NCBI GenBank assembly: GCA_040437565.1
Contig: JBDOQK010000016.1
Location: forward strand, 434,001 to 498,000
Length of the DNA stretch: 64,000 nt
From: Albugo candida
Lineage: Eukaryota
Direction: 5' to 3'
The notes below the pieces were generated by a model. The model did not search any database. It worked only from the letters and a program-made list of their open reading frames with translations, and was not told the origin of the DNA. Below, piece by piece: positions 10,819-48,396 of the stretch. Made by a program: the position numbers and the translations under genes. Position 1 is the stretch's first letter. Each line of letters begins with the position of its first letter.

Positions 10819-11314
10819 AGGATTGTAATCAAGTGGTCTTATTGCACCAATTCGGCACTGTCAAATCATCAAACATACCTTGTGGTCGTGGTGGTATTCT
10901 GACAAACTTGACGTCTATGACTGCGATACACCTTATTACATATATAGCACCATGACAATGACGTTTGCTGCTTGCTACTCTGTATGCCTCTCCATATAGC
11001 AGTACGCCAAATTCGGACTGCTTTTCACAAAGAATTACCACCGGCAAGTAGCTTCATTGCATTCTCCGCTTTGCACATATTTGTTCTCGTATGCGCATAT
11101 GGTCAACGCATACAGATGAGTCTCATCTGATCGATACGACCGACATGCTGATCTAAATTCGATCCTATAAAGACATCAACAACCGAATAAGATCCATTGT
11201 GTGGGGCTAGTGACCGTCATGTCATGTGAGGTTTATTACTGAGAGCTTAATTTTGAGGTAATGCTGCATTATAAAGTTTCGAAGAACATGTACAAGCTCA
11301 TTTGACATGTGCTA

Positions 11315-12441
11315 TTATTCGCCCTTCTTTTTCTTCTCCTTCTTCTTCTTCTTTTCCTCTTTCTTCCGCTTTTTTCGCTCTTGCTGTAATTCTTCAAAAG
11401 TGGAACGATACGTCTTCAATTTGGAAAAGTACAATTGCTCCAATTCCAAAGCCATTTGATGAACGGGTTCTCCCATTCGATTGAAAGTCGTGGCATTCTT
11501 TACTAATTGTTGCACATCATGAGAGAACTGATCGATTTTATGATACTCGGCCTTTTCGACTTTTTCCTTCATTCGAGTGAGATCCATAGGCTCTTTTACA
11601 TACTCAAAGTATGTAGGGACTCCAAGTCGTTTGCAGTTGTCCCGAGTTATCTTCTACAGAGCGTTCGTCAGACATCACACTTGTGCGCATTGAAATAGCA
11701 AAGAGGTACCTGAATAAACGGGTTACTAGGCTTCCCGTGAACGATCCATTTTGTCCATGTGACGTCGCGTAATTCCAAGATGAGAGGTGCAAGGATCTTT
11801 TGCAACATGGTCGCATCTTCACGTTCTCGTTTACGTCTCTTTTTTTCTTTTTTGTCTTCGTTTTTCCCCTTCACCTTCTCTGACGTACTGGATGCTTTGA
11901 TATCAGAAGTCGCTGCTTGTGACGTAGGAGAACGTACTGTTCCTGTGTTTTTCCCATCTTTCTCTGTGAGTTGATCATTTATGTAATATTTCACGCTATA
12001 TAATCGTGTGAGTTGTACCTTTGGATCGTTGCACAAGCATTCCCGGTTTTGATCCTGCAGGAAGCTGAAACGCGGCGCGAAGGAGATTCTCGGGTAATGG
12101 CTGGATGGGTCGATCGAATGGAACGCCATCCAGTAATCCCACAAGATTACTTTTCACATCCTTTGCACTTGCGGTAACAAAATTGGTGTTATTACCACAC
12201 ACACCGCGTAAGAGGTGATGATATGTTTGCGGGAGCTGAGTCGTATTCATTTTCTCAATATAAGTATCTAACTGATATTCTTGCATCAGATTATTGTAAT
12301 GGATTCCATCATTTTCAACTATTCAAACATAGGTTGAGTGTGATAGGTTCAGTGTTGGCACATAAAGGAAACTTTCTAGCGCTTGCAACGAGCGTGAAGA
12401 AACGTACTGTTCTCTCGTATGAGATAAACGTCTGAAGTCAT
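11315..12441 (-). CDS. Bromodomain protein with N-terminal Mediator Med19-like domain (~308 aa, 4 exons)
   Basis: Exons 12441-12408, 12318-12019, 11963-11710 and 11653-11315 with phase-consistent GT-AG introns. Bromodomain: SNPFIQKITRDNCKRLGVPTYFEYVKEPMDLTRMKEKV...Y...FSHDVQQLVKNATTFN. N-terminus VYLIRE...NNLMQEYQL...IQPLPENLLRAAFQL is Med19-like. Lys-rich tracts present. Confidence 0.8.
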
Positions 12442-12662
12442 TAGAAGCAATTCTCCAATATTATGTAACCCTGCCCTAAACACTCCAAGGGTCAAGTTCG
12501 GAATATCATGTAAGATATTATTGTAAGCACTACTAAAAAACTTGTAAATCGTTGGTTATCACTGTGGTTAATAGTAAACTCATTGAAGGTGCTCGCTTAC
12601 GAAACGTAAGATACGAACTGACAACGAAATTAGAGCTGTAACATTATAATTCTACGTGTTCC

Positions 12663-14953
12663 TTACCCACACTCACACGATCCCGTTCGACGTTGAACAT
12701 ACCGTTGCAGTAATTTTTGACGCATGGAAGCCTGTACACCATCCGTCTTCAGTGGAACTTGATATTTTGCTTGACCTCGAACGGGTTCAATCTTGAAGTC
12801 ACCAAGTAAGTCCGGACAATGTTTTACACCTTCTCCGATATCTTGACAATTTACCAGTAAATCGTAAGCGATTGAAGATGAGACAACGGAATCTTTTTTG
12901 TACTCTGGATGTCCCCTCACAAACCGACGCATCCATGTTGCTATTGTTGGCAATTCGCCAGTCGCTCTTTTGATAATAAGATCCAAGTACTTTAATATAG
13001 TCTGTCGTGTAACATCATCGCATTCGATATAGTCCAAGTACGCGTATATGATTGGGATCAATCCAGTAAAATAGGATCCTTTACCCATCATAATTTCGGC
13101 AATTGTCATAAGTTCGTATCGATCAGGGTCTTCATGGAACGCGCATCGGACATTCTCAGATGCACAATCGCCTACTTCGGGTGGCGCTAAATGACATCGA
13201 AAGTAAAATTTCTCATTCAATACGGCATTGATACGATGAGCGGCTTCCATGTTCTCATTCACTTTGGACAATGGAATGTACAAATTGAGATCAAATGTGA
13301 GAATCACACGCGACAAAAGTGCGACGAAAACGGTGTAAGCTGCATTTTCAAAGTCTGTCAGTTGAATTTCCATAGAGCGAAACTCGGTCCGCCAGCCAAC
13401 ATGAATTTTTGCTGACTGATGTTGCGATGTGTATGGTGGTGGAGGCTTCCAGCGGACTGTTTGCCAGTTTGTTGATTGAATATTTTCGAAATGATCTGTT
13501 TCAGTTGCATTATCCAAATGCAGACGCTGTTTGTAAATGACCAATGGATCGCGATTGAAAAGATGGGAAATATGAAGGGAGAGCAAATGATCCACACCAT
13601 GATCAGTCAGTGTCTGGTACGATTGCTCGTCGTATGGGACTTCGACGTCATTGTACTTAAGTGTCGAAGAATGAGGATCCAAGCCGGACTTATGATTGCA
13701 AATGTATGTCGAGATGCCTTCATACCGAGATTTGGGGAGTCGTTTACAGCCATTGCCAGCCATTTTTGCGTATGCCGCTTGAACTGCTGGATCAGTGGGA
13801 GCAGTGGTTAGACCTAATTCTTGTGGTGTGCGATCATCTACAGCAGCTGAAATGGTTGCCCATCGAACATCCGTGTCTGCTAATCGGCCCTTTAAGATCG
13901 GTGTGGCTGCTGTGAGGGCCAACATAATTGGCGATAAGACACCCAGATGATCATACAAGTGTCGAGATTCGCCAATATTTTTGGCTTGAAAAGTTACTTG
14001 CAGGCAGCACATTCCCATCCCAAAGGCCATGCAATCCATATGTATGAAACCAGGGTATGGCTCAGGAAGAGGATTCTCACAAGATACACGTTTTCCGTCC
14101 ATAGCATTAGAAGCAGCTTTATCGATATCAGTACTCCTATCAAACACGATCTCTGATGATATCGCCGCCTCAGCTGGTTGGTCGGCCTTTTTGGACTCAT
14201 AACTGGGCCGGGATCGCTCAGCATTCCAAATATGATGCTCTTCGATCAACCGAGCTTCTGTGTAGATATCTCTGAATAATGGAACACGAATATCGATCTT
14301 TCGCTTTCGGCGCTTTCGAATGTTCCGCGTGAGTGCCGCAAAGCGAGGATGTGGATTGATGACATCGTCACTCACATACTGAGATAGCGCGATGGGGCCA
14401 TTCGGGGAAGAAGGTGGATCTGTGAAAACCCCAACACCAAGAAGCGGAAATGCAGTGATGGTTGGAGCGATCTCGTCTTCGGCTAAGACTTCCAGGAGAC
14501 GGGCACGGCGAAGACGCATATTTGCTTCGACTTTGCGTAAATCATTGGTAAAACCTCCATACGGAACTTTTGGTGTTCCTTCGATCATCCATGCGCTACA
14601 TTCAAAACACATCACTATACAAGCGTAGTTATCTCGTAGTTAAAAGTGTACCCATATTCTGGCACCCATTGACATCCATCTTCATGTCCAGGCTGATTAT
14701 GTTTGGCTTCTTTTTGCTCGAGTTGCGATAAGAGTTCAGCGGCACGAAGTGAGAGTGTTGCTTTTCTTGTAGCCTTGTCCAAACGGAAGATACCGTATTC
14801 GAGTTCGTCCCCCCATTGAAGCACGTCACCCTCGATACCTTTGACACGATCATAAATATGAAGAAACTGATCGATTCCATTAGCTCGAACATGCTGAAGC
14901 CAGTCTAGAGCTTCTTCCCATTCCATGGGGCTACCATTGACCAGCAGTCCCAT
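12663..14953 (-). CDS. GCLC: Glutamate-cysteine ligase catalytic subunit
   Basis: MGLL start, WGDELEY, PEYGAWMIEGTP (across intron 14596-14651), HMDCMAFGMGMCCLQVTFQA, HFENIQSTNWQ, GWRTEFRSMEIQLTDFENAA. Confidence 0.97.
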
Positions 14954-15153
14954 GATGATTCAGGATCACCAGCGATCAAATAGTGGGNNNNNNNNNNNNN
15001 NNNNNNNNNNNNNNNNNNNNNNNNNNNNNNNNNNNNNNNNNNNNNNNNNNNNNNNNNNNNNNNNNNNNNNNNNNNNNNNNNNNNNNNGACTACAGACCCC
15101 AGACCTTCTCGCTCGTACTTTATGTGTCCCACACTATATACACGAGGATTGCC

Positions 15154-15963
15154 ATGCCACGATATTCAACGCGATATTGGAGTCAGCGCGACCCTTCTTT
15201 GCCTCAAGCAAGCTTACCCAAAATAGCAGTGATTCTGTTGAATTATAAAAATTTTGGTTGGAAAATACCTAGTTATGTCAACGCTCAATCACAACAGGGC
15301 AGTCGTGAGCTATTTTGTCATTTATGGAGCAGCGCGCACGTGACAATCTGTGCGGATGGAGGAGCCAACTGCTTGTACGATGAAGCCACAAAAGTCGAAG
15401 CAGAAAGCATTTTTTTGCCAAAATATATAAAAGGTGACTTAGATTCCCTTCGACCAGCAGTGCGAGCATTCTACGAGCAGCGCGGAAGCGAAATAATACA
15501 AGACCTCGATCAAGATTCGAATGACTTGGATAAATGCTTGAATTTACTATGGGATAAACAAGAAGAAATAAGTTCTGGAATGTTTTCTGTCGTAATTTTT
15601 GGTGGAATGGGTGGGCGCTTTGATCAGGAAATGCAAAATATAAATTGCTTGTTTCGGTATCAATCGAAATTTCAGGAGATTTGTTTGGTATCGGAAAGTA
15701 CTACAGCACGTTTGTTGGTAGCTGGAAGTCATGAGATTGAGCCCAACTTGGAGTATGAGACCGGAGTATGCGGGATCATCCCGCTTGGGGGGCCGTGCCG
15801 GAAGCTGACAACGGAGGGCTTGCAGTGGGACGTGACAGATCGGTATTCAGGATTTGGAGAAATGGTTAGCACCTCCAACCTTATCAAAGAAAAGCGCGTA
15901 TTGATTCAGAATTCGGATCCGGTGATTTGGACCACAGAACTACATGGCACTGAGTATTCCTGA
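15154..15963 (+). CDS. TPK1: Thiamine pyrophosphokinase
   Basis: Motifs ICADGGAN, GDLDS, DQDSNDLDKCL, GGMGGRFDQ, TTEGLQW and VSTSN. First ATG after the gap is at 15154. Confidence 0.95.
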   Translation: MPRYSTRYWSQRDPSLPQASLPKIAVILLNYKNFGWKIPSYVNAQSQQGSRELFCHLWSSAHVTICADGGANCLYDEATKVEAESIFLPKYIKGDLDSLRPAVRAFYEQRGSEIIQDLDQDSNDLDKCLNLLWDKQEEISSGMFSVVIFGGMGGRFDQEMQNINCLFRYQSKFQEICLVSESTTARLLVAGSHEIEPNLEYETGVCGIIPLGGPCRKLTTEGLQWDVTDRYSGFGEMVSTSNLIKEKRVLIQNSDPVIWTTELHGTEYS

Positions 15964-20249: not shown

Positions 20250-20632
20250 CAAGTTGAAGTTGATAAAAACTGTGAAAATGAATATGTCAGCATACTTGAC
20301 GGTTTTCTTCATTCACGGTACTCGAAGAAAAAATCTCAACGTTTAAGTATTATAATTCAATCCGAAAGGAAATTATAANNNNNNNNNNNNNNNNNNNNNN
20401 NNNNNNNNNNNNNNNNNNNNNNNNNNNNNNNNNNNNNNNNNNNNNNNNNNNNNNNNNNNNNNNNNNNNNNNNNNNNNNAATTCAATCCGAAAGGAAATTA
20501 TAAACAAGAAGAGCATCCACGCGCGTTGTTTCTCGCTTGTCAAAATTCAGCAAACAGCAATTAAATTACCTTATCAGGCAAAATAGGTGATAAGAGTGTT
20601 GATCACTTGATTGAAAAGGGAAAGTTGAACTT

Positions 20633-23600
20633 ATGCAATTCTTAAGGCAACTTACGGACCCCGCGCTCAAACGTTTGTACAAATTTGTGTTAAAGCGACT
20701 TATTGGGCGATATTTGGCGCATGATGAATTGGATTTAGATCAATTAGACGTTCATGTCCGCGCAGGAAAGATCGAATTGTGTGATCTGAAACTCAACGCC
20801 GATGTGCTGAATGCGGAATGGTTTGACATCTGGAATTCTTCGTCGCAAAAAAGTGGAAATAGTGCTCCATTTCGAATTGAAAAAGGATATATCGGGTCTG
20901 TGAGAGTGACAATTTCGTACGCAAAGATTCTGACAGAAAGCTGCAATGTGGAATTCGATGATATTGAATTACTTTTGGTACCCAATAGTGTCAGCTCGTA
21001 TTCTGATCCAAAATGCGATTCGGCTGCTCAATTATCACCTCAGCGAAATAGCTCCGATAAACCCAAAGAGAAGAGTATGGAGAATACCGTGGGAATTAAA
21101 GATCAACGAGATTTGATTTCTCAAGAAGGCCTGGATTTCGTGGCGAGCTGGATTGAGCAAGTGACGTCCAGGATCAAGATCACCGTTTCGAACGTTTGCA
21201 TTCGATTGGAGACCAGGGATTCAAATGGTGAAGTACGATCACGGGACAGAAACGCGTCAGATCATGAACAAGAAGCTGAAAGGAATGAAAGTGTCGCGCT
21301 TGTATGCAGATTGAAATGGGCACAATTCACGGATGAATCGGTGGTGCACAATGGAAGCGTAATACTATCCGAAGAGGATCAGAATGGGGCTCAGGGAGGA
21401 ATCAGATCGCTTACAAGCTCGGTTATTTTTGGTATCACTCAGAAAATTATCAAATTTAGAGGGATCAGCGTTGAGATTGTCAGAGATGATGTCTCTGGTG
21501 AAGAGGGAGGTATCACCAGATGGATCCTATTTCTTAGTGACACTTCACGCCAGGGATATGTGCAGGTCAAATTGGCGCAGCAGGAATTAATGGATGTACC
21601 TAGCATCGACGCCGATATTTTTTTACATTCGAGCAAGATCGTCATTCAGCCGCGCTATTTTAAAGCATTTGAGACTTTGATTGACGCCTTTGATGTCGAA
21701 AGTGCAGATAAAAGCTGCCCAGAAGGTGGATATGTTCATCCGAGCTCACAGAGCTTGTACCATTCTATTTGTGAAGGGCACCCATCTTGGCTTGAAATGA
21801 GAGAGGATGAAAGTCAAAATCGCGGACAAGATAAGAAAAAGTGGAGTCTCTCGACAACGGAATTCGAACGTATCGAAGAAATTCTGATGCAGTATCGTAA
21901 GACAAAAGAAGAACTACAGGTAGCCCAGCGATCTTATCTCAGCGGTCAAAGAAGAAGTGACTCATCTATTGCTAATAGTCATGCAATTTCTGGGGTTTTG
22001 AACGTAGAGAATGTCGAATGTTCTGGTTTATCTGATGTCGAGGAAGATGATTTTTTTGAATGCAATTCTGGCATGGAACAGACAGGAACTTTTGATATGC
22101 GGCAGTCAATATACGCTTCAATGACGGGTGAGGCAGATATGATGAATCCTAGTTGCACACTTACTGGAAAATATAAACGTTCGAAGGACCGACAGGCCCG
22201 GAATCGAGCCAAGTTACATCTGCTGGAATTTGAGATCATCATCTTGTATGAAGACGTTCAAGATGATGACGACGTGGAGAATCCAGAATCCAGTCATGAG
22301 CATACAGGCAATTTCGTGCCGACACATTTAATAGGCCTCGAAAGGCGAGAACGGCTCACGATGACTATGTCGGATGTGCTCTGCTCATCGGTTTTGTATT
22401 CATCACAATCAACCATGAGCGCTACTATCGGGAATTTCGATATTTTTGAGCACGCTGTTCCAAGTCTTGGGATGATCAGTGTTGGGGAGGCGCAACCTCT
22501 TCTAAAGATTCAGATCCTACGACTCTCTGATTCCTTAATGCAAAAGGGTCACGAGGTCCAATCGTCTTCTGCCATCACAATTTCAACCAGGATAGACTAT
22601 GAAACAAGTTCCACGACAAGCAATGGTGCAAATACTATATCATCCATCAATATTCAAGTACGAGCGCAGCCAATTATCGTGGAATGGGACATGTACATTT
22701 TGAATCGCTCCTTCAACCTATTGCAAGCAATAGAGGATCGCTCCAAAAAATCGGTTGTNNNNNNNNNNNNNNNNNNNNNNNNNNNNNNNNNNNNNNNNNN
22801 NNNNNNNNNNNNNNNNNNNNNNNNNNNNNNNNNNNNNNNNNNNNNNNNNNNNNNNNNNCATCGGTTTTGTATTCATCACAATCAACCATGAGCGCTACTA
22901 TCGGGAATTTCGATATTTTTGAGCACGCTGTTCCAAGTCTTGGGATGATCAGTGTTGGGGAGGCGCAACCTCTTCTAAAGATTCAGATCCTACGACTCTC
23001 TGATTCCTTAATGCAAAAGGGTCACGAGGTCCAATCGTCTTCTGCCATCACAATTTCAACCAGGATAGACTATGAAACAAGTTCCACGACAAGCAATGGT
23101 GCAAATACTATATCATCCATCAATATTCAAGTACGAGCGCAGCCAATTATCGTGGAATGGGACACGTACATTTTGAATCGCTCCTTCAACCTATTGCAAG
23201 CAATAGAGGATCGCTCCAAAAAATCGGTTGTAAGAACCGAAGGAAAAGACGTACGATCTGTTATCAGAACACTCGAAATTTCAACTGAAGCTGCCCAATT
23301 TGTTCTCAGATTTCCAATGATTGGAAGTGATGTCATTAGGTACGGGCTATCGTCCACGCGTGGTCTTTGTGAAGATAGAATTGTGATCACATTGAGACAC
23401 CTCGTCATCGCATCTCAAGTCCAGCCAAATGGCGAGAAAGAAGACGCAAAGAGAAGCAGTGAAGCAACACTACACTGGCTATTGGAGTACAAATTTGAAT
23501 TTGATGATGTGCATGTCGAGCTTTGTACCAAAAAAGATGACAACCAGCGTACTGGAGAAGATGTCAACTACACTTTGGTAGACGGGACCAGCGACACTGG

Positions 23601-26600
23601 TCAATCCGATAATCATTCGATCATTCTAAGGATTCAAGATCCATCACAAACTTCGATCGAGGAAGCTATCAAGATGCGAATGCCTTTTGATGAAGCAATC
23701 AAACACGGGGCAGACATCGATAGTGCACGAGTTGGTTTGAATGGCTGGAGCGGAAGTACACATTCTACCGCCCAAGCTTTTGAATGCGCCGCTGCACCAG
23801 CGTCACTCTACTTCCTCGACATGAAGATCAACAATGCGAAATTTACTCTTTCCAAATCTTCCTTTGGTCGTCTGCTAGTTCTTTTCGAGGCTCTACTATC
23901 GATAAATCCTGTAGAAGTGGATGAGTGCATTGCAACAGTTTCACGTGAAAGCCGTCCTAATTACATGAGTATGAAGCTTACGCTCTCCAAAGGCAAACTG
24001 GAGCTGCAACATACAAGAGAATACGGTAGCGGCTGTGTGTTCTCGTTTGCTTTTGAAAACGTGAAGTTGTTTCAGGTCTCACAATGGCTGGGACAACTGG
24101 TGTCACTGGTTCACGTTTCCGTGCAAAATGTGACAATGGTAGACGAGACACTGGAATCACGAAAGCCAATTTTGTATCGCACACCTTTTGGTCCATCAGA
24201 TATACCAGTACTATTCATCGGGGCTGAAATCGCAGATATATCACAAAAAATGCGAGAGATTACAATTGGAATGCATGTTTCGCATGGTACGCTACGTTTC
24301 GAGCCAAGTTCTCAGTGGTTGTTTGAACTGCTGGATATACTGGTTTTTGAGTATCCAGCACCGATCATTCCATTCGATTCAGCGGATTTGAATGAAGCAG
24401 ATTACGAAACCATCGTCCAACAGATGCGATTTGATATTGAGGATGCTGTGAAGCTCGCAGTTCCGATGAAAACTGTCTTCACTAAAATCCCCATCAAATT
24501 ATGTGATGTTGTTGTGGATTACGCACCTGTGAATGTTGACTCTCACGCCATTTTAGTGATTGGAAGTGCTAGTATCTCTTCGAATATCGTCTCCACGGCA
24601 ACGTTACTCGGTTACAAGATCGTTGCCAAAGATGTGGAATTATTTTTGAGGAATAGCGGTACAAACTATGAGGACATTGACAAATGTATCGGACACACAC
24701 AGAGACTGCAAAACGGCGATATGAAAACGAAAAACAGTCACGCTTCACGTCATGAGTCGATCCGTGCAAGATCCATGCAGCAGAACTCCTTACACATGTA
24801 TTTAGACTCGACTGGATACCTCAAGATTGTTACTTTGGATTTCATAGAGATGTTTTTGAAAAGCTCCACAGTCAACTGCTCAAACGAGATGAAGCTAGGC
24901 TCGGTGGATTCTACTGGCTATGCTTTGACCTCGGAGTGCCCTCAACTTTCCGTTGAATTGAGCGTCGGTACGGCAAGTGTGTATGCCTGCTTTGATTCAT
25001 TCTGCACATTGACCGAATTAGTATCGGATCTGGCTGACGAATTGAACAGAGAAGATGAACCCCGTGATGTCACTGGATATGTCGGGCTTGATCGGGTACA
25101 AGATTTATCGAGGGATGTGACTACAACCGCTTCTCGTTCACACAGTGTACGACTGGCGACGAGTAAGGAAAAGGTGGAGCTCACAAACATCCCCGAAATC
25201 ATCTCTGGCGACACGACAAATGCCAATAGAGATATAGCGCTGGTTCAGGCTTCCTCGCATGCAGCACTGACGAGTACGTTTGGGTGGAAGGAGTTGGAAC
25301 ATTCACCAAACAACAACATTATACAGCCTCCTGTCAATCTTTTGAAAGATATTGAGTTGAATGCATTTGGAAGTGAAAGCACAACTCGTCAAGGAAAATT
25401 CTCTACGAATGACATGGAGACGCGACAATTTCAGACTCGATTGGATGAAATAGACAGGTGGAAACATCGCGTTATGGGAACACGACATAGCAGCCAAAAT
25501 TCCCGTGCAAGCGTACGCATCAGCGAACTGTTGATTGAAAATTATTACAAAGAAAGTCACGCAGAAGAGTCGATCCCAAAGCAGCGTGATGATCGAGAGG
25601 ATAGCCCATGGTTCAGCGATCAACTTCATGTGACAAATTCTAGTAGTTTAGGAATTCGATCTGACGAACACAATTTTGAGAAAAAAGTCGCAACCTTTTC
25701 GCCGCAGTTTTCTCTCGAAAAAGAAGATGAAAATGCGATATCAACAGCTCCGGAGGCGATAGAAAGTGAGGATCATCAGTATTCTTCGATCTTCAAAGTG
25801 GATGATAGCGCAAAGAAAGCAATGTGGGAGCCCAAATCCGCGGACGATGAACGAATGAGCGAGATGCATACGGAAGTGTCAACTACGTCCATTCCAACTC
25901 GTGTTGGAGATACACACCAAGCACATTCACGTTGTACTCTATCAATGTCTTTGTTTGGTTCGGATCAAGACGAAACTACCGAAGTAGAGCTCGAATTCCC
26001 TTACGGAAACGACCTTCAGAGAAGCTTGTGCCACCTACTCGACATGACCGATGATTCCACTATCAACAATGAATTACCAGAGAGCCACCTGGGAACTAAA
26101 TGCACGCAAAATTCCGAATCAATGATCCATCGCGACGATGCGTACATCCCGCAGCCTCAATCAGATGAAGAAATATCTGGCGATCGAACTCAGCATCTTC
26201 AACAGGAGCTCCCGTCCGTTTCTTCAGTTGCCAGCGAGTATACGGCTCGATGGTTTCATGACGACCAGAGTGATATGCTGGGTAAGCAGACTCCATTTCC
26301 ACACATCTATCAGCATCACGTGGAGATTCCGATTGGTGGTGCTGCCGCGTCTTTAACATTTGGAGAGAGAGAATACAAGGCAGCACTACAAGGAATTGCG
26401 AACGAGTGTCACGTTTTGAAGATCGAACCATCCGAAGTAAGCACACGCATGCACGTTCTTTTGAGAGATTTCAACTTACGTATCCGGCTCTTTGGAGGCT
26501 CGGACTGGCCTACCGATCCAATTGAGACAAGTGCAAGTGCTGGGCGAAAGAATGAGAATATTAAGAAGAACGACCAGCAAACAGTTACTTTCGAAACGCA

Positions 26601-28236
26601 GGAACATACAAGACAACGTCCCTCACGGCAAGAAAAACTTTTGGATGCTCTACTCGACGATTACGTTCCTAATTCTCATGATGATACACTTACGAGCTAC
26701 GGAAGTGCACCGACACGATGTGATATTTTTGGTGGTAATTCTGGCTCTTTGAGAGATGGAAAATTGGTGGATCCTTCCTCATTGCCATTCACCGCTACGA
26801 AATCAACAAAGACAGGACGAAAAACGGAAGAAATGCTGGAACTCTCTGTACATCGGATACAAATGCGCTTGGATGTGTTTAATGATAGCGATTCACAACC
26901 TCTCGCTTCAAATACGGTGGCAGCAGTAGAAGATTTAGAGATTTTGGATTACATCTCAACCTCACAAATACGTAAAATGGTATGCTATTGGAAGTCCGAC
27001 ACCATTCATCCTCGAGAAACCGGAAGCAGTATCATGAAGCTGAGATTGATGACGATACGACCAGGACCGAATTTGTGCGTCGAACACCGCCTCAAGATGC
27101 GTTTCTTACCTTTACGCATCAACTTGGATCAGGAAGTTGTGATATTTCTAAAACAATTTGCCTCTGTGGGATCGACACATCAAATGAATGCAAAGGCACC
27201 AGCGGCAGAAAAACATGTGGAAAATAGCGCAAAATCTGGAGATGCTGACAGTATTGAGATGGTGACTCCAAAAGCTTCTATAGATCTCAAAGAAACGGAT
27301 ATTCGACTAGGCAACTGGTTCTTCCAAAGCATTGATATCCGACCTTGCAAAATCAAGATCGATTATCGTCCCAACCACGTGGACTACCAGGCTTTGCGTG
27401 CCGGAGATTATCTCGAAGTGATCAATTTATTTGTACTGGAAGGTATGGAACTCGTCTTACGGCGAGTCATATTAAGCGGTATTGACGGATGGGCAGCTGT
27501 GGCGGAAAGCGTGCTCATGTCGTGGGTCACCGATATTTCTCGACATCAGATACACAAATGCCTCGCGTCAGTGACAATGCCGCCTCTACGATCATTTGCA
27601 AACGTTGGATCCGGAGCTGCTGATTTGATTTTATTACCGATAGAACATTATGGAAAGGATCGGCGACTCGTACGTGGGATAAGAAAAGGAGCAAAAAGCT
27701 TTTTGAAGAGCGTTACCGTCGAGACACTAAACACAGCTTCAAAAATGGCTCAAGGAACTCAATCACTACTGGAACAAGCGGATGATTTGATATCAATTGG
27801 AGCTTCTTCATCAATGCAAAAGAAGCAACTTCAGTATCGAGGATCTACAAGTCGAATCAAACGAAACTCAAAACGTCTCGGAGGTGGAGGTATCAGAAGC
27901 GCCCAAGTCAACGGTGGAGTGCTTGGAAGCCGTCAGTATTTGCAGTTACAACCCAGCAACGCCACAGAAGGTCTGGAACAAGCATACGATTCATTAGCCC
28001 GTGAGCTTCACATTGCTGCAAAGACCATCGTAGCGATTCCTCTCGTCGAATACAAAAAGACGGGATCCCACGGATACGTTCGATCTGTGATCCGAGCCGT
28101 GCCGGTCGCTCTACTTCGTCCGATGATAGGCGCCACTGAAGCCATGTCAAAGGCGCTGATTGGAGTGCGCAATGCAGTCGATCCAGAAATGAAGGAAGAT
28201 ATCGACAATAAATTCAAAGACTTTCGAAGTGTGTGA
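20633..28236 (+). CDS. ATG2: Autophagy-related protein 2 (~2376 aa after removing a 473-bp gap/overlap)
   Basis: Chorein-N (KRLYKFVLKRLIGRYL...LDLDQLDV), TASVYACFDSFCTL (CAD-like), FLPLRINLDQE, IKIDYRP, and C-terminal ATG_C (QPSNATEGLEQAY, RAVPVALLRPMIGATEAMSKALIGVRN). The frame is restored when the duplicated 22386-22758 is collapsed. Confidence 0.93.
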
Positions 28237-43719: not shown

Positions 43720-45867
43720 TTACTTCCACCTTTGATCACCTGTGGATCCATAGAGAGGTTTAGCGCGTCGGAAATGATAATGGACCGAGTCGCGGGCCCG
43801 CTGGTGATGATCAAATCGTTTATATTGCACCATGGCGATAACGACTAGACCAGCGAGCATTAGACCGGTCCACCATCCATTCAATAACCTCGATTCCATC
43901 AGTCTCGCTCGTGGGTGGAGTACAGATTCTGATCCAGCAGTATTTGACCACCTTTTCTCCGAAAATGCACCAATAATGGTCTCTTTCCTGATTTTATCCT
44001 TTTCCCCAATCTCAAACGCGTCAATCCTTCGGCATGTACCATTCTCTAACAAGATTCCTTTTGCACAAACACAATGTGCGTGTGGACCTTCCTGACACTT
44101 TCCGTATCCGTTGCAAAAATGAGTCAGATTTTTCTCGCGAACACCTTTGTCTTGTGGGTAAAAATATCCAAATGCCACGCGCCAGCAATAATCGATGGAT
44201 GGAAAGTAATATGCGAGAGAGACATTCTTATCGTCTGCTTTGGCATTGACTGTGTCCTGCTGTTTGGGAAACTGTGCACATGGAGGGCCTGAGTATGGAG
44301 CTCTAATGCTCGGAAATTGAACTGCTGAATAGTATTTCTCCGGCCTCGATAAACAGCCGTCATCGTTCCCATCAACCGCACAATTATACGTTGGTATCGT
44401 CCCCACGCCTGAACATATTGTGACGTTTAGTTCCTTGTACAGCTGTGTTATGCGCTCATCCATCCAGTGGCTTCTCTTCAATACAGCTGTTTTGAGTTTC
44501 TCAATTTGATCCTTCATTGTAGCATTACATGTAATAAGATCTACCACAGCACATTGGAATACGTCTCCGCGCCAGTCCCCATGACATCTCTGGAGCTGGG
44601 AGTATATGGGTGCTGCGCTTTCATTGATGTAAGAAGTGATCGCTTGATCGCTCCATGCGCCATCAACAGGATCGCGCAAGCTTTTCCATCGCTGTATAAT
44701 AAGAGATGTCAGTTTATAATTGCACATCAATCGCTTCCAGAATGTATACTGCGGGTAGATCCAGTCCTTGAAATCTCGACGTGCTCCATTCCCGTACGCG
44801 AGGTTAAAGTCCCACACTGGCCCAGCATTTATTGGCTGATTTCGATCTTTGAAAAAAAATGTGCTCCGTCGATAGGCGTCCACATTCAGTGACATCTCAG
44901 TGTGTAATATGTAGTCAGCAAATGAGCCTAGATCAATATGAGCTTCCAGATGATCCGGATTCGTCATATTATACCACAGAAAACGATACAGCTTTGGCAA
45001 AAATCCAGTTGTTGTATTCACAAAGAAGTCTCTCATATTTTGTGATAATTCATTTTCCGGTGGGAATTCCAGAATTGGTCTTTCGCCCATGCCAAATTCA
45101 TTCTGATACTGATCAATGACCATATTTGGTGATTCCGCACCATACGTAAACGGATCATTTTGCCAGGCCCAACCACCGTTCAGCTCGTCTTGTGTGCATC
45201 CTGGTGTGAGTGGAGCCAGTGGTTCCCGATGCTCCGTAAATGTCAGTTTCTCGAGAACAATGTAGATGCCAAGGTACGCAGGCTTTAACAAAGGATTGTC
45301 TTGCAGATACAAAACGATATGTTTAGTCTTTGGAGAGTAGCGGCCGGTCCCACGATACAACCAATGAGCTAAATGATTACGGAGCAATGAACAATCCAAA
45401 TACGGCCCATTCAAAATAAAAACACGATCTTCAGGAAAACCCACGAAATTGACTGGATGCTGGAATCTCAGATTCATTTGATGCTTGGCGAAGAATAAAC
45501 TACTCTGGCCGCGAAAATTAGTTTTCGACATATACGTCGCGCTGGGTGCATCATTCACACAATTCAAATTCTCGTCATTATCACGATGATGATCTATCAC
45601 ATCGACTGTGGTTTCAACAGCTCTTTTCAGGCAGTTTGGGGCTGGATATCGCTGCTGGTTACAAGTTGGGTCAGGGAAGGCCTCCTTCGTAGCTTTCACA
45701 ATGACAACGGGAAACTCATAGCACTCTACAAGTCAAGCATGAGTGTCTCACAAGTCTCAATCAGCAAATGCATGCGTACGTAAGTGATCGTGCGCCCAGG
45801 ATTCTTCCAAGCCTTGAACCGCATCGATCGCAAACCAGAACGCTAGTATCCACGCAGTGAAATTCAT
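43720..45867 (-). CDS. CotH kinase-family protein (signal peptide, CotH, EGF-like, TM)
   Basis: Exon 1 MNFTAWILAFWFAIDAVQG...; intron 45726-45779. Motifs RGQSS, NGPYLDCSLLRNHLA, YLGIYIVLEK, EMSLNVDAYRRS, GPVWDFNLAYGN, EGF-like CNGYGKC...CVC...C, and a C-terminal TM. Confidence 0.88.
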
Positions 45868-46082: not shown

Positions 46083-48059
46083 TCAAGTTCCATAATCCGA
46101 CCTATTTGTCCGTTTCCCGAGCACCAAAGCCTTTTCTTGTTCCGATTGTCTACCAGCACTTTGACAACTGTTTTTTCGACCAAGATGCAAGTACACCAAC
46201 ATCCCTGCGATGAGCATCAGTCCCGACATTATAAGGGTCGTAGATATCCATGCGCCATGCTCCGATTCAAAAATCAACCGATGATTCTGCAAATTCACTC
46301 CTGCTGTATCCGCACATGATGGTGGATGCATACCACGAATACACGTACAAGTCACATTTGGACCAGCGGGACAATATCCATTTCCAGAGCAAAACGGGGT
46401 CACCGTTCCGTCTTCAATGTATGTACCCACTGATAACCAGCAATAATCAACGGATGGAGCACAAGTCGCATTTGTAAAGTCTACATTTTCTGAACATTCG
46501 GGTCCTTCATAGGCTTGATGGATGCTCGGGAACGATAATTTGCCGATAAAGGCCTCTGGATCACTCAAGCATCCGCTCTCGTTACCGTCAGCAGCGCAAT
46601 TGAATTTTGGCAGCGGCCCACCAGTGCTGCATGTGGTTTCGTCAAGTGATTTGTATAATTTGCCTCCAACATTTACGTCGATCCACTTGGAACGGGCTTC
46701 TATGATGTCCAAAATCATCTGTACCTCATCACGATAAGTTTTCGCTCCGGATTCGGTTGACACATGAGCGCATTGAAGGTCACTACTCATCCAATTGGAG
46801 CAGTGCGTGAGTTGTCGTTCGATGGGTCTCACGCTTGCTTCAACAAACTGTTGTATTGAAGCTGGACTCCATTCATTCGCACGAAGTTGTCGCCATCGCT
46901 TGGTAACAAGACCAGCAAATTTATAATTACAAAAGAGTCGCTTCCAGAATGTCGATGGCATGTACATCCAGCGCATGTTAGGATCGTTCTTCGCACCAGA
47001 TCCGTATGCAAGGTTGAAATCCCAAACGGGACCAGCATTGATAGGCTCATTACGATCTTTAAAGTAAAAAGCACTGCGTCGATACGCATCTTGATTGAGA
47101 GACATCTCGGTGTGCAAAAAGTCGTCCACGAAAGAACCAATATCAATATGGCGTTCCAATCCGTTTGGGTCCGTCATGTTATTATATAAATACTCAAACA
47201 TTCGTGGGAGCGGTCCGACTCCTGGTGTGACAAAGTAATCACGCATAGCTTGCGAAGTGGTATCTCCAGGAGGATACTGTAGAATAGGTCGTTGTCCGTA
47301 CCCATATCCTGTTTCATACTTATCCAGCAAGATATTGGGAGAATACAGTCCATATTCAAGTGGATTGATTTCCCAAGCCCAGCCCCCGTTCATTTCTTTT
47401 CTTGAACACGATGCATTCAGACGCGCCAGACCAACTCGATGTCGACCATAATCAATCTTTTCCATGGCTAAATAAATCCCCTTGTATTCGACAGTCTGGT
47501 TTTCTGCATGTCGAATAAACAGAACGACATGTCGTGTGCGCGGTGAATATCGTCCCGTACTGCGAAATAACCAGTGAGCAAGATGGTTTCGGATCAAGCT
47601 TCGATCGATAAATGGACCGTTCAGTACGAAAGTTCGACCTGGAGGGAAATCAAGCCACTCGGTCGTTTGGTTGAAAGTAACGCCGAACTGATGCTTATCG
47701 AATCTCAAACTCGATTGGCCTCGATTATGTACAAGTGCGTCCCGGGCTGTCGATTTGTTACTCATTGAAAGACAATTTCTCTCTTTGGTGTCGATTACAT
47801 CGATTACTGTCTGACGATTCTCTTTAACACAACTAAGAGATGGCAAGTGTGGTGTAACACAACTGGATAATGGAAAAGGCTGACGAGGTGATAGGATCAA
47901 TACAGGTAGCTCAAAACACGCTACAATTTGTAGGTTAGCGTCAATTCGTACATGGATTGGGATAGGAAACGTACTTTTATCGTAAGGCTGCGCTGTCACA
48001 AGAGCTTTTAATCCTAACAAAAGATGAAGCAGTACATGCGTTCTTGCGATCAAAACCAT
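46083..48059 (-). CDS. CotH kinase-family protein, tandem paralog
   Basis: Signal peptide; probable in-frame intron 47921-47974 with a GCTAAC branch site. Motifs RGQSS, NGPFIDRSLIRNHLA, YKGIYLAMEK, EMSLNQDAYRRS, GPVWDFNLAYG, EGF-like CSGNGYC...CTC...C, and a TM. Confidence 0.9.
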   Translation of the reverse strand: MVLIARTHVLLHLLLGLKALVTAQPYDKSTFPIPIHVRIDANLQIVACFELPVLILSPRQPFPLSSCVTPHLPSLSCVKENRQTVIDVIDTKERNCLSMSNKSTARDALVHNRGQSSLRFDKHQFGVTFNQTTEWLDFPPGRTFVLNGPFIDRSLIRNHLAHWLFRSTGRYSPRTRHVVLFIRHAENQTVEYKGIYLAMEKIDYGRHRVGLARLNASCSRKEMNGGWAWEINPLEYGLYSPNILLDKYETGYGYGQRPILQYPPGDTTSQAMRDYFVTPGVGPLPRMFEYLYNNMTDPNGLERHIDIGSFVDDFLHTEMSLNQDAYRRSAFYFKDRNEPINAGPVWDFNLAYGSGAKNDPNMRWMYMPSTFWKRLFCNYKFAGLVTKRWRQLRANEWSPASIQQFVEASVRPIERQLTHCSNWMSSDLQCAHVSTESGAKTYRDEVQMILDIIEARSKWIDVNVGGKLYKSLDETTCSTGGPLPKFNCAADGNESGCLSDPEAFIGKLSFPSIHQAYEGPECSENVDFTNATCAPSVDYCWLSVGTYIEDGTVTPFCSGNGYCPAGPNVTCTCIRGMHPPSCADTAGVNLQNHRLIFESEHGAWISTTLIMSGLMLIAGMLVYLHLGRKNSCQSAGRQSEQEKALVLGKRTNRSDYGT

Positions 48060-48109
48060 TTCTGCTCGTTTTTCGAAAGACAGCCGGTCTGCGAGACAGA
48101 ACACACGAA

Positions 48110-48125
48110 AAAAGTGAAAAGTGAC
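48110..48125 (-). promoter_or_regulatory. INR/FPR-like core promoter of the CotH paralog
   Basis: Minus-strand GTCACTTTTCACTTTT lies 50-65 bp upstream of ATG 48059. Confidence 0.35.
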
Positions 48126-48396
48126 AATTTGAAAGACAGAGACCCCTATGTGCTCCTCTCAACTGACCCAAAATTTTACATATTGACGCCTTTTTTGTCC
48201 GAATACCTGTCCACCACACTTTCGCTGCTGTTTATCAAATATTCTGGGTTTTAAACACTGAAATACGAGCATCAAAGGGATCAGATCAATCAGCCTTTCA
48301 GTCAAAGATACATTCGGAAAAATTTGCGAATTTTGTGCCCGTTCAAGGCTCGTCATTGTGATATTGCTACCATACAATCATATAAAGTATCAAATC

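Follow-up and report, generated by a model that had tools for sequence, protein, structure and literature searches.

A four-exon gene of Albugo candida encodes a Med19-like domain joined to a bromodomain

The stretch of DNA analysed here (the window) is 64,000 nucleotides (nt) long and covers positions 434,001 to 498,000 of the forward strand of Albugo candida contig JBDOQK010000016.1 (assembly GCA_040437565.1); all positions given below are those of the window. On its minus strand, at 11315–12441, lies a four-exon gene whose joined exons make 927 nt (308 codons and one terminal stop), and whose product ends in a bromodomain and begins with about 100 residues that resemble the Mediator subunit Med19. 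We read this gene as the oomycete Med19 to which a bromodomain has been added C-terminally, and we give this reading a probability of roughly two in three. The parts of the gene, as delimited by comparison with the annotated Albugo laibachii protein P0001 and by contigs assembled from public runs (both described below), are as follows:

11315..12441, minus strand: whole coding region (ATG 12441–12439, stop 11317–11315; 4 exons, 308 residues), collinear with P0001 and found in spliced contigs
12442..12471, minus strand: 5' leader of at least 30 nt; the spliced contigs in runs X2 and X10 extend to 12471
12408..12441, minus strand: exon 1, 34 nt, residues 1–11 plus 1 nt; contains the VYLIR opening of the N-terminal domain
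12319..12407, minus strand: intron 1, 89 nt, GT..AG; retained in one 149-nt contig of run X1
12019..12318, minus strand: exon 2, 300 nt; most of the Med19-like N-terminal domain
11964..12018, minus strand: intron 2, 55 nt, GT..AG
11710..11963, minus strand: exon 3, 254 nt; Ser/Thr-rich linker, first basic tract and bromodomain helix 1
11654..11709, minus strand: intron 3, 56 nt, GT..AG; interrupts the bromodomain
11315..11653, minus strand: exon 4, 339 nt; remainder of the bromodomain, C-terminal basic tail and stop
12041..12432, minus strand: Med19-like N-terminal domain, residues 4–104 (the span takes in intron 1); from Pfam Med19 and the ESM Atlas
11821..11877, minus strand: first basic tract, residues 141–159, with a KKEKKRRKR core; aligned by Pfam to Med19 profile positions ~112–170
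11408..11808, minus strand: bromodomain, residues 164–278 (the span takes in intron 3); from Pfam, PDB sequences and the P0001 model with Foldseek
11609..11611, minus strand: ZA-loop Tyr211 codon (PTY); in BRD4 the first Tyr of 'PDYY' aligns with it
11480..11482, minus strand: Asn254 codon (TTFN), conserved in the family; its counterpart in the BRD4 alignment is the acetyl-lysine-binding Asn of the 'YN' motif
11318..11380, minus strand: second basic tail, residues 288–308; Lys plus Arg make up 65% of residues 286–308

All three introns begin with GTAC and end with AG, and the splice phases are consistent throughout. No in-frame ATG lies between the preceding stop and the start ATG at 12441. 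The original prediction, made from the letters of the window, had proposed a protein of 308 residues from four exons in consistent phase, and every coordinate it gave proved right; the VYLIR, NNLMQEYQL, KKEKKRRKR and TTFN motifs on which it drew are all present. The spliced product aligns from end to end with P0001 (318 residues), and all three exon junctions are matched. The two proteins are identical at 261 of 308 residues (85%), a value made up of 78/101 (77%) in the N-terminal domain, 43/59 (73%) in the linker, 108/115 (94%) in the bromodomain and 30/30 (100%) in the tail. Residues 111–160 are 34% Lys plus Arg, and in the AlphaFold2 (AF2) model of P0001 the basic tract and the first bromodomain helix form one long continuous helix. 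The A. laibachii model begins 13 residues upstream of the position of the first ATG in the window.

Contigs of public runs X1, X2 and X10 join 11653 to 11710, 11963 to 12019 and 12318 to 12408 exactly, with 0 other letters, and so skip precisely the three introns that had been predicted; the junction ends read CT..AC on the plus strand, which is GT..AG on the strand of the gene. A single 1041-nt contig from X2, identical in X10, spans 12471..11367 with all three introns spliced out, and the upstream gene is on a separate contig that ends at 12538. The check for transcripts of two separate genes thus returned one contig that holds sequence of all four exons, as expected of a single gene. For this stretch none of the runs is recorded as RNA, and the run types 'RNA?' and '?' are guesses; the DNA of the window contains the introns, so the simplest reading is that the contigs are transcript assemblies of one mRNA that spans both domains. 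Because X1 and X2 come from one study, and the X2 and X10 contigs, equal in both length and depth, may be a single data set deposited twice, independent transcript support amounts to two runs at most. Assembled contigs give neither transcript ends nor transcript levels; run X5 covers three short pieces only, with no junction, and contig cover is absent at 11250–11343, where a low-complexity repeat is skipped. It is certain that a single spliced transcript encodes both domains.

In run X1 a further contig, of 149 nt (12289–12437), has intron 1 still in place; its depth is 53, vs 93 for the spliced 60-nt contig. Retention of this intron would end the reading frame after about 23 codons, and the contig may stem from pre-mRNA, from carried-over DNA or from a regulated isoform.

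The C-terminal half of the protein is clearly an ordinary bromodomain, as the original prediction had it. Exon 4 alone matches Pfam Bromodomain (PF00439) with 60.5 bits and E 1.6e-16 (cut-off 21.7 bits), and intron 3 splits the domain, since its first helix is encoded in exon 3. The same cut-off is passed by all 12 family proteins in one set scanned and by 12 of the 14 in a second, where P0048, which has an internal gap, reached 15.9 bits and the exon-sized fragment P0026 gave no match. At E ≤ 0.001 the bromodomain matches 375 distinct PDB sequences, with PBRM1, BRD4, Candida glabrata Bdf1, TAF1 and BPTF at the top. The P0001 AF2 model has a predicted local distance difference test score (pLDDT) of 88–93 over the bromodomain, and Foldseek gave 28 matches to it at E ≤ 0.001; the matches listed (CBP/p300, SMARCA2/4, PB1 BD2, Bdf1 BD2, BPTF and BRD1) are all bromodomains, and the template modelling (TM) score by target is 0.6–0.8 to those of CBP, BPTF and BRD1. 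Judged on this orthologue, whose bromodomain is 94% identical to that of the window (above), the fold is the left-handed four-helix bundle.

Asn254 and Tyr211 align with the Asn of 'YN' and the first Tyr of 'PDYY' in BRD4, which we take to be the acetyl-lysine contacts Asn140 and Tyr97; the claim that the Asn of TTFN is retained therefore stands. This Asn is present in every family member that reaches the position, preceded in most by Phe ('FN') and in two Aphanomyces species by Tyr (the canonical 'YN'). The bromodomain is apparently functional, with the Asn and Tyr for acetyl-lysine binding kept.

Relatives of the N-terminal domain were found in oomycetes. A HMMER search with exon 2 over 1.84 billion representatives gave 11 matches at E ≤ 0.001, of which 8 belong to the family and 3 share a short repeat motif only, and word-seeded searches, run from exon 2 and from the N-domain profile, produced 12, 14 and 17 matches. 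P0021 and P0022 were rejected as relatives, being unrelated repeat proteins that share only a short repeated motif, as was P0017, whose match is confined to such a motif. All named matches are from oomycetes, namely Albugo, Phytophthora (4 species), Nothophytophthora, Peronospora, Bremia, Hyaloperonospora, Peronosclerospora, Aphanomyces (4 species), Achlya and Thraustotheca. The bromodomain is present in every model long enough to reach that part; the matches that have none comprise exon-sized open reading frames (ORFs) of 95–163 residues on contigs that are not spliced, records that are themselves labelled partial, and P0016, on a short metagenome contig whose sequence passes into non-coding DNA. 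The architecture of Med19-like domain plus bromodomain is thus conserved in Albugo, Peronosporales and Saprolegniales, and there looks to be about one orthologue per species across three oomycete orders. The N-domain-based searches found no relative outside the oomycetes, which does not show absence because canonical Med19 lies beyond their reach. The original prediction had looked to stramenopiles for the same architecture, and this held across the oomycetes and not, among the relatives found, for stramenopiles at large.

The most divergent member, P0019 (253 residues), has an N-terminal domain that is ~35% identical, a shorter linker, a weaker basic tract and an intact bromodomain, and its residues 21–124 match positions 19–124 of the Pfam Med19 profile with E 0.002. 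Two species contribute two records each, Nothophytophthora sp. (P0003/P0007) and Thraustotheca clavata (P0018/P0046), and these may be haplotigs or real duplicates. Public orthologue records P0008, P0007, P0048 and P0001 have annotation problems; one Nothophytophthora model has an apparent unspliced insertion, and the P. cactorum model is without an internal piece of the bromodomain.

The identity of the N-terminal domain is less easily settled. We scanned 33 family proteins (in sets of 12, 7 and 14) with Pfam, in which Med19 is PF10278, with a curated cut-off of 25 bits, and fungal Rox3 is PF08633. Two of the 33 reach the Med19 cut-off, P0001 (residues 33–173 vs profile 19–166) and P0005 (residues 11–106 vs profile 3–95), each with 25.8 bits, part of which derives from the Lys-rich tract; in both the aligned stretch takes in the non-repetitive N-terminal domain, and for both the precomputed database domains list PF10278 together with PF00439. 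Another 11 proteins have sub-threshold Med19 matches, and matches at E ≤ 0.1 occur in 13/33. When N-terminal domains were cut ahead of the basic tract, 4 of 11 still matched Med19 (E 0.0064, 0.047, 0.11 and 0.21), as did 4 of 14 in another such set; all four matches share one register, which places the NLM..Y.L segment at profile positions ~20–27, and the 11 cut domains matched no other Pfam family at E ≤ 10.

The ESM Atlas feature search points to the same family. Queried with P0001 residues 14–125 and with residues 20–135 of the Aphanomyces protein P0020, two N-terminal domains that are only ~30% identical to each other, it returned Med19 clusters at ranks 1–3 and a fungal Rox3 cluster at rank 5 in both cases. 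The two queries scored 0.89 (185 shared features) and 0.90 (179 shared features), where the tool treats scores below 0.9 as leads only and regards 170 or more shared features as typical of true family members. The arrangement of the protein fits as well: according to an excerpt of Bourbon (2008; PMC2475620), Med19 candidates were picked there by the order and spacing of a conserved block and a basic tract, and here the Lys/Arg-rich residues 141–159 follow the N-terminal block in an order and at a spacing that agree with that description.

To the lead-only grade of an ESM Atlas score below 0.9 must be added several other points that weigh against Med19. The window's own exon 2 gave no Pfam match at E ≤ 10, 31 of the 33 family proteins fall under the Med19 cut-off, and 5 of the 13 matches at E ≤ 0.1 align the low-complexity basic tract only. 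Neither the N-domain profile, searched against 177,635 PDB sequences, nor a single N-terminal domain matched a Med19 chain at E ≤ 10; the only PDB sequences that these searches returned were an FNIP-repeat protein (profile search) and a designed protein. The AF2 model of the N-terminal domain is poor (pLDDT 64, predicted TM score 0.37, and pLDDT below 50 in the full-length model) and had 0 Foldseek and 0 VIA matches; because the model is poor and Med19 is extended within the Mediator complex, comparison with the solved Med19 chains is a weak test. The predicted failure of the domain to fold alone would be compatible with a subunit that folds on assembly. Taken together, Med19 is the best and only candidate identity for the N-terminal domain, on evidence that is borderline, and homology of these ~100 residues to Med19 is in our estimate quite likely. 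The original prediction that the N-terminus is Med19 thus gained the two orthologues at the cut-off and the Med19/Rox3 clusters of the Atlas, and failed to gain a match to any solved Med19 chain.

The same negative points (Med19 sub-threshold or absent in 31 of 33 members, exon 2 alone unmatched, solved Med19 chains unmatched by sequence or fold) favour the alternative that the domain is peculiar to oomycetes and sits in a small bromodomain protein of some other chromatin or transcription complex (one like SWI/SNF, SAGA or a TFIID-associated complex), and that its Med19 matches come from the Lys-rich tract and chance. It is also favoured by the P. cinnamomi orthologue record, to which one source gives the name 'Transcription initiation factor TFIID'. 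However, N-terminal domains without the basic tract match Med19 by themselves and in one consistent register, the two divergent N-terminal domains have Med19/Rox3 as their nearest feature clusters, and no TAF1, ET or other complex-specific Pfam domain occurs in the members scanned. As for the name, P. infestans has a separate TAF1 with DUF3591 and a bromodomain (Table 2 of PMC4030286), so 'TFIID' most likely follows the bromodomain alone. We regard a non-Med19 origin as unlikely, though it is the strongest of the alternatives.

A second alternative accepts the homology and places the protein elsewhere: it would be a Med19-derived paralogue that has departed from Mediator, with a canonical Med19 encoded at another place in the genome. 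Nothing that we found favours this directly. Searches that started from the N-terminal domain gave no complete relative without a bromodomain, their short matches being the exon-sized ORFs and partial records described above, and the family looks like one orthologue per species in three orders; we consider a departed paralogue distinctly improbable. That the fusion is an artefact of gene prediction, with two neighbouring genes read as one, has nothing found in its favour and can be dismissed, since one contig with all three introns removed runs from the leader into the bromodomain, introns 1 and 3 lie inside the N-terminal domain and the bromodomain, respectively, and independently annotated genomes have the identical architecture.

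If the gene is indeed the oomycete Med19, its N-terminal ~100 residues would, by homology, hold the protein at the place of Med19 in Mediator. The Lys/Arg-rich tract behind them may be the counterpart of the basic Med19 C-terminus and could act as a nuclear localisation signal, contact DNA or nucleosomes, or do both. The appended bromodomain, which is followed by the second basic tail and retains the Asn and Tyr needed for binding, would be expected to recognise acetyl-lysine, whether on histone tails or in acetylated transcription factors. Tethered in this way, the reader could couple Mediator directly to acetylated promoter nucleosomes. An excerpt of a mini-review (PMC9986247) reports from cryogenic electron microscopy that nucleosomes bind TFIIH p52, MED19 and MED26, and a passage of PMC9088918 has the kinase module in contact with Med19. 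Since human MED19 touches the +1 nucleosome, a Med19-tethered bromodomain would sit there and could read its acetylated tails. Residence in Mediator and acetyl-lysine binding are putative, and an acetyl-lysine reader built into Mediator is plausible. The full proposal, that the Mediator of oomycetes has an acetyl-lysine reader of its own, which is fused to Med19 where the complex contacts the +1 nucleosome, is more tentative, and we hold it at slightly less than even odds.

The protein shares features with several known systems and departs from each. Like Med19/Rox3 it has an N-terminal block that opens with a [FV]YLxR-type motif and is followed at Med19-like spacing by a Lys/Arg tract; unlike them it has ~150 extra C-terminal residues that make up the bromodomain and the second basic tail, and its similarity lies at or under the family threshold, with none detectable to the solved Med19 chains. 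We know of no animal, plant or fungal Med19 protein with a reader domain.

With the BET proteins (BRD4, yeast Bdf1) it has in common an Asn-type bromodomain, for which BRD4 and Bdf1 are among the best sequence matches, and presumably the job of linking acetylated chromatin to Mediator and Pol II. BET proteins, however, stand alone as polypeptides and have an ET domain besides their two bromodomains, whereas here one bromodomain is joined to a presumed Mediator subunit, and no family member scanned has a Pfam match to ET; a BET identity was rejected on both counts. The likeness to TAF1 of TFIID is that of a core transcription cofactor subunit with a bromodomain of its own, and the human TAF1 bromodomains match at E ~2e-12 among PDB sequences. 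At only 308 residues the oomycete protein is without the TAF1 core: DUF3591, which defines it, has no Pfam match in the window exons or in the family proteins scanned, and a TAF1/TFIID identity was rejected for that reason. The bromodomains of CBP/p300, PBRM1, SMARCA2/4, BPTF and BRD1 are its best structural and sequence neighbours, but the likeness is limited to the bromodomain (17–29% identity in Foldseek) and the remaining architecture is unrelated.

BET proteins such as BRD4 are credited with linking Mediator to acetylated chromatin, and to our knowledge Mediator itself does not contain a histone-mark reader. A Med19–bromodomain fusion conserved and expressed across an entire eukaryotic class would demonstrate that Mediator can have such a link built in, and would point to Med19, reported at the human +1 nucleosome contact, as the site where it acts. 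Should this be true, Mediator itself would read promoter histone acetylation without a separate BET adaptor, a core step of eukaryotic transcription would have been rewired oomycete-wide, and the gene would be a 'Rosetta-stone' fusion, which would argue that Med19 and acetyl-lysine reading cooperate in other eukaryotes also. The bromodomain also stands in a lineage-specific context, and the lineage counts major pathogens of crops and fish among its members. The fusion would also fill a gap in comparative inventories. Searches of the full-text literature turned up no description of a Med19–bromodomain protein or of any bromodomain-containing Mediator subunit. The domain pair is already public as precomputed Pfam annotation (of one A. 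laibachii record and one other), and its interpretation is, as far as we have found, unpublished.

Of the other genes in the window, the upstream neighbour, at 12663–14639 on the minus strand, is a eukaryote-type glutamate-cysteine ligase (Pfam GCS, E 1.3e-156), and only ~220 nt separate its ORF from the ATG of the Med19-like gene, so the locus is compact; a thiamin pyrophosphokinase lies at 14959–15963 on the plus strand, also upstream. Two tandem long ORFs on the minus strand, at 43720–45732 and 46083–48158, each contain a CotH kinase-like domain (E 3e-28 and 2e-34) and look like a local duplication; the CotH family is better known from bacterial spores and Mucorales. At 20615–28236 on the plus strand, two long ORFs overlap, with VPS13-like matches for the N-terminal part and ATG2 matches for the C-terminal part; they are probably one large intron-containing gene for an ATG2-type lipid-transfer protein.
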